A stretch of 64,000 bases of DNA from NCBI GenBank assembly GCA_029547745.1, contig JAKPOQ010000061.1:18399-82398 (forward strand), written 5' to 3'. Below the pieces are notes generated by a model. That model saw only the letters and a program-made list of their open reading frames with translations, ran no database searches and had not been told where the DNA came from. Shown in pieces: positions 354 to 6,718 of this stretch. Numbering within the stretch: position 1 is the first letter of the stretch; every line of letters begins with the position of its first letter. The DNA is from Actinomycetes bacterium. GTDB lineage: Bacteria; Actinomycetota; Thermoleophilia; UBA2241. A program made the translations under genes and the position numbers.

Positions 354-1712
354 TCAGGCGGCGCCGTGCACTCGCCGCCGCTCGACGCTGTTGATCGGCA
401 ACTCCAGCAGGCGCGAGATGGCCGCCTTGGCCTCGGCGGGGCTCGGGTCGAACGGACGGGGAGCCTCCCCGTCCGCGATCCGCCCGAGCCCCAGGTCGCC
501 GCGGACCTCCTGCATCGCGGCGCAGTCGGAGAGATCGCCCTCAGCGACGCCGAGCCTGTCGGCGACGTAGGCCTTGGCTTCCGCGAGCCGCATACCTCTG
601 GCCATCTGCAGGCGCGCTACCAGATCTCCGGAAGCGCGCATGCCACCCATCCCTGCGGCGACACCGTGTGCCACGGGCATGCCGAAGATGTCTCCCGTCC
701 CGACCTACAGGCCGTCCAGACGCAGGACCTCGACGGTCGCCTTCGACACCCTCGAGACCGCATCGACGGGCGGCACCATGGCCATCGGCACGCCACCGAC
801 CCCCATCCCCACGTTCATGTGGACGGGGATGCGTGCGCCGGCCACGCACGGCTTCACGAGCGTCAGGGCGCGACTCGTGTTCCAGGCGAGACTGCGGCCG
901 GTGTTGACGTTGACCGCCGGCCCATAGATGGTCGCGCCGGCCTGTTGGACGAGCTCCTGCTGTCCCGCCGGCCACCGGCCGGCGACGCGCATGCCGTGGA
1001 ACTCGAGCTCGCCGTGAGTCCCGAGCACGCGCTCCGCCGCCATGCCGACCATGATCCCCATGTCTGGGTGGCGGGAGCGCAGTGTCTCGACTGCGCGCAA
1101 CGTCGCCAGCAGGTCGGCGTCGCCGGCGGCGCCGGCGGTGTCGAAGTTGACGCCGTCGGCGCCCGCCTCCCAGAGCGCCTCGGCGACGTGCACCATGTCC
1201 GCCGTCGCCAGCTCCATGGCCTCTTCCTGAGCCGTGCGCGCCTCGTCGATGCGCAGCTCGGGCAGGAGCGTCGACCAGTTGCGGCACGGCCCGTCGGGCT
1301 CAGAGTACCGTCCGAGATCGGGCTGCGCCCCGTAGTGCACCGGGATCGTCAGGCGCTCCTGGGCCTCCTTCATGGCCGCTTGCTCGTGCGGGACGAGCGT
1401 CTTCACGGCTTTGTACGAGTAGTCCTGGTGAAAGAGCTCCAGACTGTCCGAGGCCAGACACTGCTCGTAGAGCAGCAGGCCTGCGATACGGTCGAACTGC
1501 GCCGCCCCCGTGCCGTCGAAGCTCAGCATGACCTCGTCGCCGATGTCGACCGCGGTGAAGCGCGCCGGCGAGGCGAAGATGGCAAGGAGATGGTCGAGCT
1601 CATCCGCGGCGAGCGGATCGACCTTGGCCCGGCGGACGGCCTCGTCGACCCCGCCTTCGAGTTCCGTCCTGATCTCGGATCGCGTCAGCTCGATGAGGGA
1701 GCCGTCGGCCAT
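354..1712 (-). CDS. mtbB: Dimethylamine:corrinoid methyltransferase homolog (MtbB / Dimeth_PyL family) with an in-frame TAG at 705-707, presumed pyrrolysine read-through
   Basis: ORFs 705..1796 and 354..680 are in the same frame and separated only by TAG (rc of cta at 705-707) plus 8 codons (VGTGDIFG). The combined protein is ~452 aa. It carries motifs recalled from methanogen MtbB: GADGVNFDTAGAAGD, NVGMGVGGVP, AGMGG..SGDLVARLQMA, INSV. The paralog at 5035..6422 has TAG at the identical position. RBS GAGGA sits 9 nt before ATG 1710-1712. A start at the upstream GTG (VEPRIPTRM..) is also possible. Confidence 0.7.
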
Positions 1713-1921: not shown

Positions 1922-2731
1922 CTACTCGAGGAGCAGTCGGTCGACCGCGAAGGCCTCACCGGCGACCTTGTGGAACATGTCGATGAGGTCGCTCACCTGC
2001 AGGGCCTCCTTCTCGGTCGGGCCGAGATCCAGCACCACGCGGCCCTCGTGCATCATGATCAGCCGCTCGCCGTAGCGCAGCGCCAGCTCCATGTTGTGGG
2101 TCACCATGAGCGTCGTGAGGCCCCGCTCCGAGACCATCTTCGCGGTGAGGTCCATGATGGTCGCCGCGACCTTGGGATCGAGCGCCGCCGTATGCTCGTC
2201 CAGAAGGAGGATGCTCGGCTCGGACTCCGTCGCCATGAGCAACGACATCGCCTGCCGTTGACCCCCGGAGAGCTTGTTGACCTGGGCCTTGAGACGATGC
2301 TCGAGGCCCATGCCGAGAGGCTCCAGATGCGTACGCATGAACTCGCGGCGCCGGTTTGTGACGCCGAGACGCAAGCCGCTGCGACGTTCGCGCATGAACG
2401 AGATCGCCAGGTTCTCTTCGATCGTCATGCTGGGAGCGGTCCCCGCCGTAGGGTCCTGGAAGACGCGACCGATCAGACGACTGCGCTGGAACTCGCGTTG
2501 CCGAGTGACGTCTACACCGTCCAGCAGGACACAGCCCGAGCTCACCGGGTACATGCCCGCGATCGTGTTGAGGAGCGTCGACTTGCCGGACCCGTTCGAC
2601 CCGATGATGCTGACGAACTGGCCCACAGGAACTTCGAGGTCGATGCCGTTCAGGGCCACGACCTCGTTGGCGGTGCCCGGGAAAAAGACCTTGCGCACCG
2701 CCTGCAGTTCCAGACTGGCGGGCCGGCTCAT
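1922..2731 (-). CDS. ABC transporter ATP-binding protein (COG1101-type; partner of the COG4120 permease and COG2984 binding protein)
   Basis: Walker A GSNGSGKST, signature LSGGQRQ, Walker B LLLDEHTAALD. The true start MSRPASLELQAV is at 2731 and overlaps the permease stop by 4 nt. The gene ends with TAG (1922-1924). Confidence 0.8.
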   Translation of the reverse strand: MSRPASLELQAVRKVFFPGTANEVVALNGIDLEVPVGQFVSIIGSNGSGKSTLLNTIAGMYPVSSGCVLLDGVDVTRQREFQRSRLIGRVFQDPTAGTAPSMTIEENLAISFMRERRSGLRLGVTNRRREFMRTHLEPLGMGLEHRLKAQVNKLSGGQRQAMSLLMATESEPSILLLDEHTAALDPKVAATIMDLTAKMVSERGLTTLMVTHNMELALRYGERLIMMHEGRVVLDLGPTEKEALQVSDLIDMFHKVAGEAFAVDRLLLE

Positions 2732-3636
2732 ATACGCACCACCTTCTTGCGGACCGTCGGGATCGACAGCGCGATCACGACGAGGACGGCGGTGAGGAGC
2801 TTGAGGTCCGTGGGCGCGATGCCTAGCCGCAGGCTCACGGCGATGAGCAGCCGATACACGATCGAGCCGCCGATCACGCTGAACAGCACCCAACTCACGC
2901 TGCGCTCACCGAAGAGCACCTCGCCCATGATGACGCCGGCCAGGCCGGCGACGATGGTGCCGATTCCCATGCCGACGTCGGCGAACCCCTGCTGCTGAGC
3001 TACCAGGGCGCCGGTGAGGGCGACGAGGGCGTTGGCGATGCCGAGGCCGACGATGCGGGTGAAGGCCGTGTTGGTGCCCATGGCGCGGATCATCTGCTCG
3101 TTGTCGCCCGTGGCCCGTAGACAGAGTCCGAACTCCGTGCGCAGAAACCAGTCGATGACGTACTTCACGATCACGGCGAGCGCAACAAGGGCGATGATGA
3201 GGTTCCACCCGCTCATCGCGACGCCGAACAGATCCTCGATCTGCTCGAACACGCCGTCCAGGCCGAGGAGCGGCGTATTGCTCTTGCCCATCACCCGCAG
3301 GTTAACGGTGTACAGGCCGGTCATGGTGAGGATGCCGGCCAGAAGCTTGGCGCCGTAGTTGGCGGCGGCGCTGCCGCTCGACCCCAAGCCGAGCAGCAAG
3401 TGCAGGATGCCGGTGACGAAGCCGGCGCAGAGCCCCGCCGCCACACCGGCCAGGGTCGCCGTCCACGGAGACTGCCCGCCGGAGATCATCGCCGCCGTCA
3501 CCGCAGCCCCCAACGGGAGACTGCCGTCCACAGTCAGGTCGGGGAAGTCCAGCACGCGGAAGGTGATGTACACGCCCAGCACCATGAAGCAGTACAGGAG
3601 GCCCTGCTCCAATCCGCTCGTGATGATCGCTTCCAC
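2728..3636 (-). CDS. ABC transporter permease (COG4120-like, multi-pass membrane)
   Basis: 302 aa hydrophobic protein with ~8 predicted TM segments, translationally coupled to the downstream ATPase. Confidence 0.8.
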   Translation of the reverse strand: MEAIITSGLEQGLLYCFMVLGVYITFRVLDFPDLTVDGSLPLGAAVTAAMISGGQSPWTATLAGVAAGLCAGFVTGILHLLLGLGSSGSAAANYGAKLLAGILTMTGLYTVNLRVMGKSNTPLLGLDGVFEQIEDLFGVAMSGWNLIIALVALAVIVKYVIDWFLRTEFGLCLRATGDNEQMIRAMGTNTAFTRIVGLGIANALVALTGALVAQQQGFADVGMGIGTIVAGLAGVIMGEVLFGERSVSWVLFSVIGGSIVYRLLIAVSLRLGIAPTDLKLLTAVLVVIALSIPTVRKKVVRI

Positions 3637-3659
3637 GTCAGATGGCTCCGAACATCCGT

Positions 3660-3693
3660 GACAGAGGCAGGGGCTTCAGCCCCTGCCTCTGTC
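3660..3693. other. Intra-operon perfect stem-loop (15-bp arms, loop TTCA) between the binding-protein and permease genes
   Basis: GACAGAGGCAGGGGC-ttca-GCCCCTGCCTCTGTC. No U-tract follows on the transcribed (minus) strand. This is a typical mRNA-stabilising hairpin after a binding-protein cistron. Confidence 0.45.
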
Positions 3694-3737
3694 GGTCGAT
3701 TACACCACGCGCCGCTGGTCACCCGACGCGGCGCCGG

Positions 3738-4754
3738 TCACTCTCCGAAAATATTGTCCGCCTTCGCGAGGACGTCCTCGGGCAGGGTGACGCCCATGGC
3801 CTTCGCCGAAGCGGGGTTGACGGACAGTTGCAGGGACTCAGCGAACTGCACCGGGATCTCGGCGATCGGCGTGCCGCTGAGGATCTCCGCCGCGATGTAC
3901 CCCGCCTGCACGCCCAGGTCCTTATAGTCGAACGCGTACGCCGCTGCAGAACCGCGCTTCACGCTGTCGGTGTCTCCCGAGATGAGCGGGATGTCGTTCT
4001 GCTGGCACACCTTGACGACGCTCTCGAGCGCGGACACCACGGTGTTGTCGGTGAGCACGGAGATCGCATCGACGCGGCCGACCAGGGAGTCGGCAGCCGC
4101 CTTGACCTCGGAGGAGTTGCTTGCCGTGGCCTCGACGACCTTCAGCCCCATGGCCGCCGCGGCCTTCTTCTCCTGCTCGACGGAGAACACCGAGTTAGCC
4201 TCGCCCGCGTTGTACAGCACACCGATCGTCTTGACGTCCGGCACGATCTGTTTGATGAGATCCAGGTGCGGCTTGACCGGCAGCATGTCGCTCACGCCCG
4301 TGACGTTGGCGCCCGGCGCCTCGGGGTCGTCGACGAGACCGGCGCCGACCGGGTCCGTGACGGCGGTGAACACGATCGGGGTCGTAGTGACGGCCTTGGC
4401 GACCGCCTGCGACGTGGGCGTCGCCACGCCCAGGATGAGGTCGAGATCCTCGCTGGCGAAAGCCTGGGCGATGCTCGAGGCCGTCGCCATGTCGCCCTCA
4501 GCGTTCTTGACTTCGTAGGTGACGTTGGTGAAGCCCTTCTCGGCCAGACCCTGCTTGAAACCCTCCACGGACGCATCGAGGGCGGGATGCGTGACGATCT
4601 GGGTGATGCCGATGGTATAGGCCTGAGCCTGTGGACTCGCGGAAGCGTCGCCGCCGTCGCCCTCGTCCGAGCCACTGCAGGCGACGAGGGAGAGAGACAG
4701 GGCCAGGACGGCGGCCAGCGCAGACAACGCGGCCAGGGTACGTGCACGACGCAT
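3738..4754 (-). CDS. ABC transporter substrate-binding lipoprotein (COG2984 / ABC_sub_bind family)
   Basis: Signal peptide with lipobox (LSLSLVAC) starting at MRRARTLAAL, followed by a periplasmic binding-protein-like fold. It is followed by a 15-bp-arm stem-loop. Confidence 0.75.
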   Translation of the reverse strand: MRRARTLAALSALAAVLALSLSLVACSGSDEGDGGDASASPQAQAYTIGITQIVTHPALDASVEGFKQGLAEKGFTNVTYEVKNAEGDMATASSIAQAFASEDLDLILGVATPTSQAVAKAVTTTPIVFTAVTDPVGAGLVDDPEAPGANVTGVSDMLPVKPHLDLIKQIVPDVKTIGVLYNAGEANSVFSVEQEKKAAAAMGLKVVEATASNSSEVKAAADSLVGRVDAISVLTDNTVVSALESVVKVCQQNDIPLISGDTDSVKRGSAAAYAFDYKDLGVQAGYIAAEILSGTPIAEIPVQFAESLQLSVNPASAKAMGVTLPEDVLAKADNIFGE

Positions 4755-5034: not shown

Positions 5035-6422
5035 CTATCGTTGCAGACCGACGCGGTCCTTGAAGCGCGCGACCGAGTTGATCGGCACGTCGAGCAGCTC
5101 ACTGATGTTGAACTTCGCCTCGATCATGCCGGGCTCGGCAGGATGGACTGCCGAGGTGCAGGCCAGCGTGCCGAGGCCGTGGTCGACCCGGATGGTCTCC
5201 ATGGCCACCGGGTCGGACAGATCGCGCACGGAGCAGCCGAGCTTGTCGGCCACGTAACGCTTCGCTTCACCGAGACGCATCCTGCGGGCCATCTGCATCC
5301 GGGCGACCAGGTCTCCGGCCGTCCGGTAACCGCCCATGCCCGCGGCGTGTGCGTGCGCGCCCTCCATGCCCTGGGCGTCGCCGGTACCCGCCTAGTAGCC
5401 GTCGATGCGCAGGATCTCGACGAACGCCTTCGCCGCCCGCGAGGTGGCGTCGGCCGGCGGGTAGGCGCAGGTCGGCACCCCGCCGACGCCCATGCCCACA
5501 TTAACGTGGATGGGGATCTCGGCGATCTCCATGCAGGGCTTGATGATGGTGATCGCGCGGGCGATGTTCCAAGCGGTCGACTTGCCCGTGTTGATGTTGA
5601 CGCAGGGCCCGAAGATGCTCGCTCCGGCCTGCTGCACGAGCTCCAACTGGGCCTTCGGCCAGAGGCCAGCGAGGCGCGTGCCGCGATGCGTGACCTGGCC
5701 GTGCATGCCGATCACGAACTCGCCCGCCATGCCGATCTCGATGCCGAGGTCGGGGTACTTGGCACGCAGCCGCTCGCAGGCCTCGAGGGCGGCGAGGAAG
5801 TCGCAGTCGCCGGCCGCCCCGGTCGTGTCCATGTCGATGCCGTCGGCGCCGGCCGCGACGAGGTGGTCGGCGACGAACTCGATGTCGTCGACGAGCACCG
5901 CCGCGGCCTCTTCCTGCGAGCGGCGCGCCTCGTCGATCTTCCCCAGGGGGAGCAGCTCGGACCAGTTGGGGAACGGCCCGTCGGGGGCCGAGTAACGTCC
6001 CAGGTCGGGCATCGCCCCGTACTGCACCGGGTTCGTGACGAGCAGTTGGGCCATCTTCATCCACTGGGCTTCGTGGTGGACGTTCGTCTTGACGGCCTTG
6101 TAGGAGTAGTCGGTCTGCCAGAGTTCGACGATGTCGACGCCGACCACCTGCTCGTAGGTCTGCAGGTCGGCGCCGACGCTGCCCACATACTTGGTGCCGG
6201 TGCCGTCGTTGCTGAGCACGACCTCGTCGCCGATGTCGACGGCGGCGAAGCGCGCCGGCGAGGCGTAGATGTCGAGCAGATGGTCGAGCTCGTCTTGGGT
6301 GAGCTCCGCGACCTTCGCCTTCTTGGCCGCGATCTGCGTGCCCTCTTCGAGATCGGCCTTGATCTCGGAGCGCGTCATCTCGACGAGCGCGCCGTCACCC
6401 ATTCGCGTCGGGATCTTGGGTT
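5035..6422 (-). CDS. mtbB: Second dimethylamine methyltransferase homolog (MtbB family) with an in-frame TAG at 5392-5394, presumed pyrrolysine read-through; it also terminates with TAG
   Basis: ORFs 5392..6630 and 5035..5367 are in the same frame (6630-5367=1263) and separated by TAG (rc of cta at 5392-5394) plus 8 codons (AGTGDAQG). It is a paralog of 354..1712; the post-TAG octapeptide has conserved amino acids but differs at synonymous sites. RBS GGAGGTG lies before ATG 6420-6422 (MLLEPKIPTRMGDG..). The N-terminal extension in the ORF track (MSFAS..) is unlikely to be real. Confidence 0.7.
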
Positions 6423-6642
6423 CCAACAGCATCACCTCCAGCACGTCGTCGGGACCGGAGTCAGGACGGTAGCCTACCGTACCCGTCGTCACCGGCGCCA
6501 CCGGGTCTGCGGCAGCCCCAGCAGACGATACTGCGGCACCCTGGCGAGGCCCGCGCCTCGGGCTCTCTTGATGGTCCGCACAGTGCCAGCCAGCCGCACC
6601 CTGGCCGCGCCTCGTCGAGGCGAAGGACAAGGCACAGCCTGC

Positions 6643-6718
6643 TGGAGCCGGCGGGCGGGCTCGAACCGCCGACCTGCCGCTTACAAGGCGGCTGCTCTGC
6701 CAACTGAGCTACGCCGGC
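6643..6718 (-). tRNA. tRNA-Thr (anticodon UGU)
   Basis: The reverse complement folds as a canonical cloverleaf: acceptor GCCGGCG/CGCCGGC, D-arm GCTC-AGTTGGCA-GAGC, anticodon stem GCCGC/GCGGC with loop CTTGTAA, T-arm GGCGG-TTCGAGC-CCGCC, discriminator T, CCA encoded. Confidence 0.88.

Follow-up and report, generated by a model that had tools for sequence, protein, structure and literature searches.

The closest described counterpart of the genes considered here is the MtbB1/2/3–MtbC system of Methanosarcina barkeri, whose dimethylamine methyltransferases belong to the same Pfam and TIGRFAM family over their full length and contain one UAG at the homologous position, followed by the same post-pyrrolysine motif. 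Among Actinobacteria, Guo et al. (2022) listed pyrrolysyl-tRNA synthetase (PylRS) genes in "two Actinobacteria" (PMC9630628), and Ellenbogen et al. (2023) reported expressed pyrrolysine-type mtbB and mttB in Actinobacteriota metagenome-assembled genomes (MAGs) from Stordalen Mire (PMC10805028). Both papers deduce pyrrolysine from gene truncation or from the presence of PylRS, and give no locus anatomy, pylT sequence or hairpin. In NCBI records, the names PylD and PylS are already given to proteins of Thermoleophilia MAGs, some of which belong to the species studied here; a full-text literature search for "pyrrolysine" with "Thermoleophilia" returned no dedicated study. We analyze a stretch of 64,000 nucleotides (the window) of contig JAKPOQ010000061.1, assembly GCA_029547745.1, which comes from an uncultured anaerobic-digester actinobacterium of the Thermoleophilia and holds two mtbB genes, mtbB-a and mtbB-b. 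Both very probably encode full-length MtbB enzymes, with an amber-reading tRNA(Pyl) inserting pyrrolysine at their one internal UAG. A first, sequence-only reading of the window had held pyrrolysine to be unexpected in this lineage; the two papers and the NCBI product names show that it was already on record for Actinobacteria and Thermoleophilia.

The gene mtbB-a (354–1712, minus strand) encodes a dimethylamine:corrinoid methyltransferase and appears in annotation as two open reading frames (ORFs), 705–1796 and 354–680, which share one frame and are separated by a TAG (705–707) plus eight sense codons (VGTGDIFG), just as the sequence-only reading described them. The ATG of the downstream ORF follows these eight codons directly. 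Gene callers start the N-terminal part at the ATG at 1712 (MADGS...), and the gene consists of 335 codons (708–1712), the TAG, 116 codons (357–704) and a terminal TGA (354–356), for 452 codons including the UAG. The layout of a long part, TAG and a short part had been proposed with about 347 and 117 residues; the layout stands, and the N-terminal count is corrected to 335, with 116 after the TAG. The motifs quoted in support of the family assignment (AGADGVNFDTAGAAGD, NVGMGVGGVP, AGMGGMRASGDLVARLQMA and INSV) are all present in the read-through product, and the tryptic peptide predicted across the TAG is LDGL-O-VGTGDIFGMPVAHGVAAGMGGMR. A second paralogue with the same anatomy, mtbB-b (5035 to about 6402, minus strand; gene callers' start at 6492), lies approximately 4.7 kb from mtbB-a and is 59% identical to it. 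It comprises 335 residues, an in-frame TAG at 5392–5394 and 118 residues (about 454 in total), and ends in another TAG (5035–5037); its predicted junction peptide, read from the window translation, is IDGY-O-AGTGDAQGMEGAHAHAAGMGGYR, reaching N-terminally to the preceding Lys or Arg. This second gene was left undescribed by the sequence-only reading, although its label "mtbB1" for the first hints at awareness of another copy.

The read-through proteins, searched with a placeholder residue at the TAG, match the MtbB family over their whole length. The mtbB-a product matches PF09505 (Dimeth_Pyl) with an E-value of 9.6e-156 and 519 bits (cut-off 25) over residues 1–447 of 452 and positions 7–461 of the 463 in the hidden Markov model (HMM), and the mtbB-b product with 9.8e-162 and 539 bits (same cut-off), reaching HMM position 462 of 463. 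Both exceed the cut-off of the equivalog model TIGR02368 (369.1), with 410 and 413 bits, respectively. The full-length match to the former model and the score above cut-off for the latter indicate a family similarity far beyond chance. The Rfam model PYLIS_2 (RF02509, "pyrrolysine insertion sequence mtbB"; gathering score 36) matches mtbB-a at 608–707 (63.4 bits) and mtbB-b at 5295–5394 (46.8 bits), both on the minus strand, and its positions 1–3, the pyrrolysine UAG, land on 705–707 and 5392–5394; conservation of the coding sequence contributes much to these scores. Translated by hand, the Rfam consensus reads O-I-G-V-G-D-P-M-G-M...A-A-G-D-L-V-A-R-M and matches the window sequence *-V-G-T-G-D-I-F-G-M...A-S-G-D-L-V-A-R-L. 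Among 1.84 billion representative proteins, an exhaustive HMMER search returned only 359 relatives. The five that cover the whole query (37–49% identity, 353–356 residues) all stop in ...DG[L/V] at the TAG residue, which indicates that these distant homologues were cut by gene callers at the same codon. By these alignments, the TAG of each gene is the predicted pyrrolysine position of the family. The assignment of a single MtbB gene with one amber codon at that position, and the coincidence of this TAG with the MtbB pyrrolysine codon, are thereby borne out for mtbB-a, as is the PF09505 match that the sequence-only reading had anticipated. No MtbB relative with a solved structure was found in a PDB sequence search.

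One distant relative differs at this position. P0314, a protein of 463 residues that is 33% identical to mtbB-a in the alignment and 30% in the HMMER search, has Trp (VDMLWATTGDPY) in place of pyrrolysine, which hints at a non-pyrrolysine MtbB branch comparable to the non-pyrrolysine MttB homologues.

The TAG and the frame beyond it are conserved across the lineage. With each GTDB species represented by one genome, a scan gave 50 loci in 31 assemblies (30 MAGs of Thermoleophilia and other Actinomycetota, and one labeled Thorarchaeota). The corresponding tblastn hits number 95, 14 of which come from the window and duplicate contigs and the remaining 81 from the 31 assemblies. TAG occupies the pyrrolysine position in 89 of the 95 hits, and TGA or TAA in none; the six exceptions are mostly apparent frameshifts or alignment offsets in long-read (MFD) assemblies, with one copy lacking the codon. 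Seventy-one distinct 100-nt Thermoleophilia segments begin with TAG and keep the frame, and the motif that follows (xGxGD...GMGGxRxxGDLVAR, with the junction LDGL-TAG-xGxGD) is conserved. Where mtbB-a has its only nearby Met, several paralogues have Gln (GQ and not GM), so that an independent start of the tail is not conserved. Compared with orthologues at approximately 85–90% identity, post-TAG substitutions fall mostly on third codon positions (at positions 1, 2 and 3 they number, for example, 13/16/40, 11/16/42 and 15/12/50), and synonymous codon changes exceed non-synonymous ones. The frame downstream of the TAG is, judged by this pattern, under purifying selection. The mtbB relatives include the Stordalen MAGs palsa_647, fen_672 and palsa_645 (62–77% identity), and genomes in the lineage hold up to six or more diverged mtbB copies each.

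Individual copies depart from the common pattern. In MAG ELA582 (L034, about position 1895, minus strand), an mtbB copy reads LDGLSSGDSFGM without a TAG, with a junction shorter by two residues; it may be a pyrrolysine-free variant or a damaged copy. The assembly labeled Candidatus Thorarchaeota (L056, CAVSBO010000010.1) holds an mtbB with the same TAG, whose N-terminal part is about 53% identical to that of mtbB-a, rising to 75% in the 60 residues that precede the TAG; its presence there could be due to mis-binning or to transfer. In a population variant of mtbB-b (L002, about 1259–1261, ENA ERZ778037), TAC is changed to TAA (ochre) at the Tyr of ...LRAKYPDLG, which splits the N-terminal part into 245 and 112 residues. 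It reflects either inactivation in that strain or a fault in the assembly.

The pyrrolysine-decoding genes are located outside the window. A tblastn search of the first 56 loci with Methanosarcina mazei PylRS, a query used as a probe only, gave a sole match in locus L027, a PylSc with 314 bits against TIGR02367 (cut-off 178); no pylT or pylBCD was found within 10 kb of it. Relatives of this PylSc are numerous, and some are named by NCBI [quoted passage not shown]. Their contigs share one gene order: amidase, pylSc, corrinoid protein, radical SAM protein, pylSn, Germane-domain protein, pylT, pylD, pylC and pylB. Five PylSc candidates (P0063, P0004, P0025, P0043 and P0012) were rejected as belonging to the window's organism, as sample and record names, which appear to denote lakes, wastewater or other sources, point to other Thermoleophilia; they nonetheless exposed the conserved pyl neighborhood and pylT. 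The ten short-read contigs shown for one of them (L078–L087, PylSc P0025) all end some 30–270 bp past the gene, which points to a repeat at this place, perhaps an mtbB or corrinoid gene in several copies, like that in L027. Such a repeat beside pylSc may be why pyl loci are often absent from bins.

The pylT gene led to the window's species. It is 97–100% identical among these Thermoleophilia lineages, and a metagenome scan with its 32-nt core matched 110 contigs. One of these, Ga0116187_1000204, comes from a sample (JGI 3300009676) that also holds a contig with the exact LigA of the window. Its PylD falls in a 90%-identity cluster with HOT23875.1, HQJ97836.1, HQG03136.1 and HQG54723.1, which NCBI names PylD from "Thermoleophilia bacterium". 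The exact window LigA and ClpB are deposited at NCBI as HOT22988.1/HOT22995.1, HQJ97966.1/HQJ97959.1 and HQG04060.1/HQG03899.1, and the fourth accession block contains HQG54808.1, a partial LigA variant of the same 90%-identity LigA cluster. Assuming that accessions run sequentially within a submission, we infer that four independent MAG submissions contain both this PylD and the gene sets of the window. These PylD variants were found in three JGI samples (3300010345, 3300009676 and 3300010342) and one ENA sample (ERZ27257438), and each of the four also contains the exact window LigA. In the closest long-read relative, MFD00032.bin.2.201, the mtbB-a orthologue is 87% identical and its locus syntenic, and Contig_33337 (640,917 bp) of this bin carries the syntenic pyl locus together with a TAG-containing mtbB paralogue.

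The species' own pyl locus (L201, part of a 78.9-kb contig) has seven pyl-related components: PylB (TIGR03910, 439.7 bits, cut-off 348.2), PylC (TIGR03909, 362.8 bits, cut-off 248.3), PylD (TIGR03911, 178.5 bits, cut-off 150.05), a tRNA-Pyl with anticodon CUA identified by ARAGORN, PylSn (TIGR03912, 121.6 bits, cut-off 51.15), an MtbC-like corrinoid protein (16181–16819 of L201; TIGR02370, 218.8 bits, cut-off 215.3) and PylSc (TIGR02367, 298.7 bits, cut-off 178.15). The corrinoid protein stays under the MtbC equivalog cut-off (216 versus 350). The pylT with anticodon CUA was found in L201–L203 and in L110 (which lies within the L202 contig), all of the same species. In its cloverleaf a single nucleotide separates the acceptor stem from the D stem, the D-loop spans 5 nt, the anticodon stem is long and its loop reads CUCUAAA; these are hallmarks of tRNA(Pyl). 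These links indicate that the same species carries, elsewhere in its genome, the predicted genes pylB, pylC, pylD, pylT, pylSn and pylSc and an MtbC-like corrinoid protein. The sequence-only reading had looked to the rest of the genome for exactly these pyl genes, and contigs of the same species contain them.

The pyrrolysine site, the constrained tail and the pyl set of the species together give strong support to pyrrolysine read-through, and other explanations of the interrupted frame can be judged against them. Were the TAG a true stop, a 335-residue N-terminal part and a C-terminal part of about 108 residues would be made as two assembling polypeptides. Standard gene callers do predict two ORFs, an ATG lies eight codons past the TAG of mtbB-a, and other genes of the window use TAG as a normal stop. 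Yet the eight codons between TAG and ATG are conserved as protein (xGxGD), several paralogues have no Met to start from but a Gln, and the interruption is always TAG, never TGA or TAA, though most ORFs (40 of 53) stop at TGA; with a full pyrrolysine-decoding set in the species, a split gene is very improbable. A pseudogene, decaying since the TAG arose as a nonsense mutation of recent date, has practically no likelihood. The additional TAA in the population variant of mtbB-b does show that inactivation occurs, but the same TAG recurs in 71 distinct sequences from 31 assemblies and in both paralogues, and the intact downstream frame continues to accumulate substitutions biased to third positions. 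Junction conservation and this third-position bias thus rule out a pseudogene and argue strongly against a split gene.

It is also conceivable that the UAG is read as a canonical amino acid, by another suppressor tRNA or by near-cognate decoding. The Trp of the distant full-length P0314 indicates that a residue other than pyrrolysine is possible in the family. Against this, the species has a tRNA(CUA) with the features of tRNA-Pyl and intact PylSn, PylSc and PylBCD, and the window has no tRNA with a CUA anticodon (no search for other suppressor tRNAs was made in the rest of the genome); we regard such decoding as highly improbable. Several observations nevertheless weigh against decoding of these two genes as pyrrolysine. 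ARAGORN, Rfam and ORF inspection found no pyl gene, pylT or corrinoid protein in the 64-kb window, whose tRNAs (ARAGORN and Rfam) are Thr, Lys and Leu only and whose other inspected ORFs are housekeeping genes, and no pyl genes were found in the 10 kb beyond its left edge. The link between window and pyl genes runs through co-binning (accession blocks) and sample co-occurrence, and not through one contig of the organism. A methyl-acceptor methyltransferase and a corrinoid reactivation protein were not found in the sequence analyzed. The TAA in one strain variant means that the mtbB-b copy can decay. Lastly, about 10 of the 51 ordinary ORFs, mtbB-b among them, terminate in TAG without nearby back-up stops, so unregulated read-through would be costly.

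Pyrrolysine decoding of both genes remains the reading that we hold with high confidence, and from what is known of methanogens and of pyrrolysine systems (PMC9842639) its mechanism would be as follows. PylBCD would build pyrrolysine from two lysines, and the split synthetase, PylSn plus PylSc, would charge tRNA(Pyl) with it (PMC9842639). The pyrrolysine ring (residue 336) would bind and orient dimethylamine, and a methyl group would pass to a Co(I) corrinoid protein, as for methanogen MtbB and MtbC (Krzycki and co-workers; PMC9842639). A second methyltransferase would then take the methyl group from the methyl-corrinoid, probably to tetrahydrofolate in a non-methanogenic anaerobe. A different substrate would alter this scheme in function only: one or both paralogues may be pyrrolysine enzymes for a methylated amine other than dimethylamine. 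The two are only 59% identical, a single genome of the lineage can contain up to six or more diverged mtbB copies, and with 410 and 413 bits they exceed the TIGR02368 cut-off of 369 only modestly. Both copies nevertheless pass this equivalog-level model, and in related loci mtbB has its classical neighbors, a corrinoid protein and a pyrrolysine-type mttB (whose enzyme yields dimethylamine), so we consider another substrate unlikely.

UAG would serve both as sense and as stop codon in this organism. Among 53 confident ORFs of the window, TGA is the stop in 40 and TAG in 12, two of the latter being the pyrrolysine sites. In mtbB-b the two uses meet in one frame: the internal TAG is the predicted pyrrolysine codon, the last one (5035–5037) is the terminator, and the next in-frame stop lies 82 codons further on. 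With sense and stop UAG coexisting, release-factor competition or regulated pyl expression must limit the damage; decoding of UAG must be competitive, context-dependent or regulated, as it is in other bacteria that use pyrrolysine.

The RNA downstream of the UAG was examined by counting the Rfam structure on 71 aligned, mutually related Thermoleophilia mtbB sequences. The UAG-proximal helix 1 of PYLIS_2 (columns 7–38) is 59.9% paired, with many mismatches, and was rejected on this ground as a conserved structure in the lineage. Helix 2, an 8-bp hairpin (columns 73–80 paired with 85–92 after the UAG), is 93.3% paired; it corresponds to 616–635 in mtbB-a (codons A-A/S-G-D-L-V-A) and 5303–5322 in mtbB-b, both on the minus strand, and appears in the minimum-free-energy fold. 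Slid controls of the Rfam structure are 34–42% paired. Two pairs of helix 2 join third codon positions: pair 75–90 is CG in 43 sequences, GC in 14, UG in 7, UA in 5 and AU in 1, and pair 78–87 is CG in 43, UG in 15 and GC in 12, each being broken in a single sequence. The remaining pairs of the hairpin are mostly set by the conserved peptide A-A-G-D-L-V-A. For both helices together, 65 cells are changed on both sides, compared with 34.3 ± 5.5 in shuffles (0 of 500 reach 65). Taken over their full 100 nt, the segments are no more stably folded than shuffled sequence (z about -0.3). These counts are suggestive of selection on the hairpin 73–92 nt after the UAG; that it contributes to pyrrolysine insertion or UAG decoding is speculative.

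An ABC transporter (1922–4754, minus strand) separates the two mtbB genes. It consists of an ATPase (1922–2731; PF00005 and synteny), a permease (2728–3636; BPD_transp_2 domain match and synteny) and a substrate-binding protein (3738–4754; PF04392, ABC_sub_bind), a candidate for methylamine uptake. The transporter keeps this position in seven related MAG loci (L007, L009, L015, L019, L020, L024 and L052), where the binding protein is 67–84% identical; from this conserved synteny, it may import the methylamine substrate. In other relatives an mttB with its own in-frame TAG directly follows mtbB (L031 11115–12890, L040 11161–13548 and L017 6264–7748). The TAG in mttB of related loci falls between Pfam MTTB positions 334 and 341. 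In L031, the sole locus scanned with Pfam, a corrinoid protein and a full-length non-pyrrolysine MttB-family gene come after mttB. Directly upstream of mtbB-b lies a tRNA-Thr (UGU; 6643–6718, minus strand), and this tRNA gene recurs in eight or more of the related mtbB loci. The actinobacterial housekeeping synteny pointed out by the sequence-only reading is found in the window (pknB, pbpA, rodA, pstP, fhaB and fhaA; clpB, hspR, dnaJ and dnaK), while its G+C content, given earlier as 72%, is measured at 69.4%.

As to annotation, one pyrrolysine enzyme of 452 residues and one of about 454 should replace four fragments. The anaerobic-digester species joins the known pyrrolysine-decoding bacteria, and its mtbB-b is a natural case of sense and stop UAG in one mRNA. 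For work on the genetic code, a high-GC bacterial set of PylSn, PylSc and tRNA(Pyl) is on offer. Dimethylamine is a direct precursor of methane, and bacteria that demethylate it compete for it with methylotrophic methanogens in digesters, peat and lake sediments; the habitats of the pylT contigs appear to include peat, lakes, sediments and digesters. A wider proposal is tentative, and we would sooner doubt it than adopt it: that many Thermoleophilia (30 Actinomycetota MAGs; pylT on 110 metagenome contigs) form a large overlooked pyrrolysine-using clade with multi-copy mtbB and mttB, in which UAG is a normal stop in about one fifth of genes, maybe with the hairpin or regulated pyl expression separating sense from stop UAG, and maybe with a dedicated ABC importer. 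If this were true, such a clade would comprise significant bacterial competitors of methylotrophic methanogens for methylamines. Current understanding is not overturned by these genes. The pyrrolysine trait was already reported in this bacterial group; the genes are further members of MtbB, and the organism is a pyrrolysine-decoding bacterium with split PylSn and PylSc.

Comparison with the described systems places the locus as follows. Like M. barkeri with its MtbC, the window's species has an MtbC-type corrinoid protein, but the window copies have no adjoining corrinoid gene and an ABC transporter lies between them. The Thermoleophilia host lacks methanogenesis, which excludes coenzyme M (via MtbA) as the methyl acceptor. 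Identity of the window MtbB to representatives outside the Thermoleophilia is only about 37–49%. With Desulfitobacterium hafniense, Acetohalobium arabaticum and Bilophila, the lineage shares a split PylSn/PylSc, pylT adjoining pylBCD and TAG as a still common stop. It differs from these bacteria in that its pyl genes extend over approximately 10 kb among genes for a Germane-domain protein, a beta-lactamase, a radical SAM protein and a corrinoid protein, and in that pylSc is co-directional with a cell-wall amidase gene. While pyrrolysine in the best-studied bacterial cases is found in MttB, the Thermoleophilia here have multi-copy mtbB. With respect to PYLIS_2 and the PYLIS of Methanosarcina mtmB, both UAG flanks of the window score above the Rfam threshold and the 3' helix is kept with compensatory changes, whereas the 5' helix is only 60% paired in the lineage; the role of the mtbB element is putative. 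The Actinobacteria of the Stordalen and Guo reports belong to the same phylum and have the same gene family, while the species of the window comes from an anaerobic digester (TPA MAGs GCA_035419265.1 and GCA_035424825.1). To these reports the present analysis adds a link to a digester species; it shows how broadly the trait extends across Thermoleophilia and describes the layout of the pyl neighborhood, a near-invariant pylT and the hairpin.

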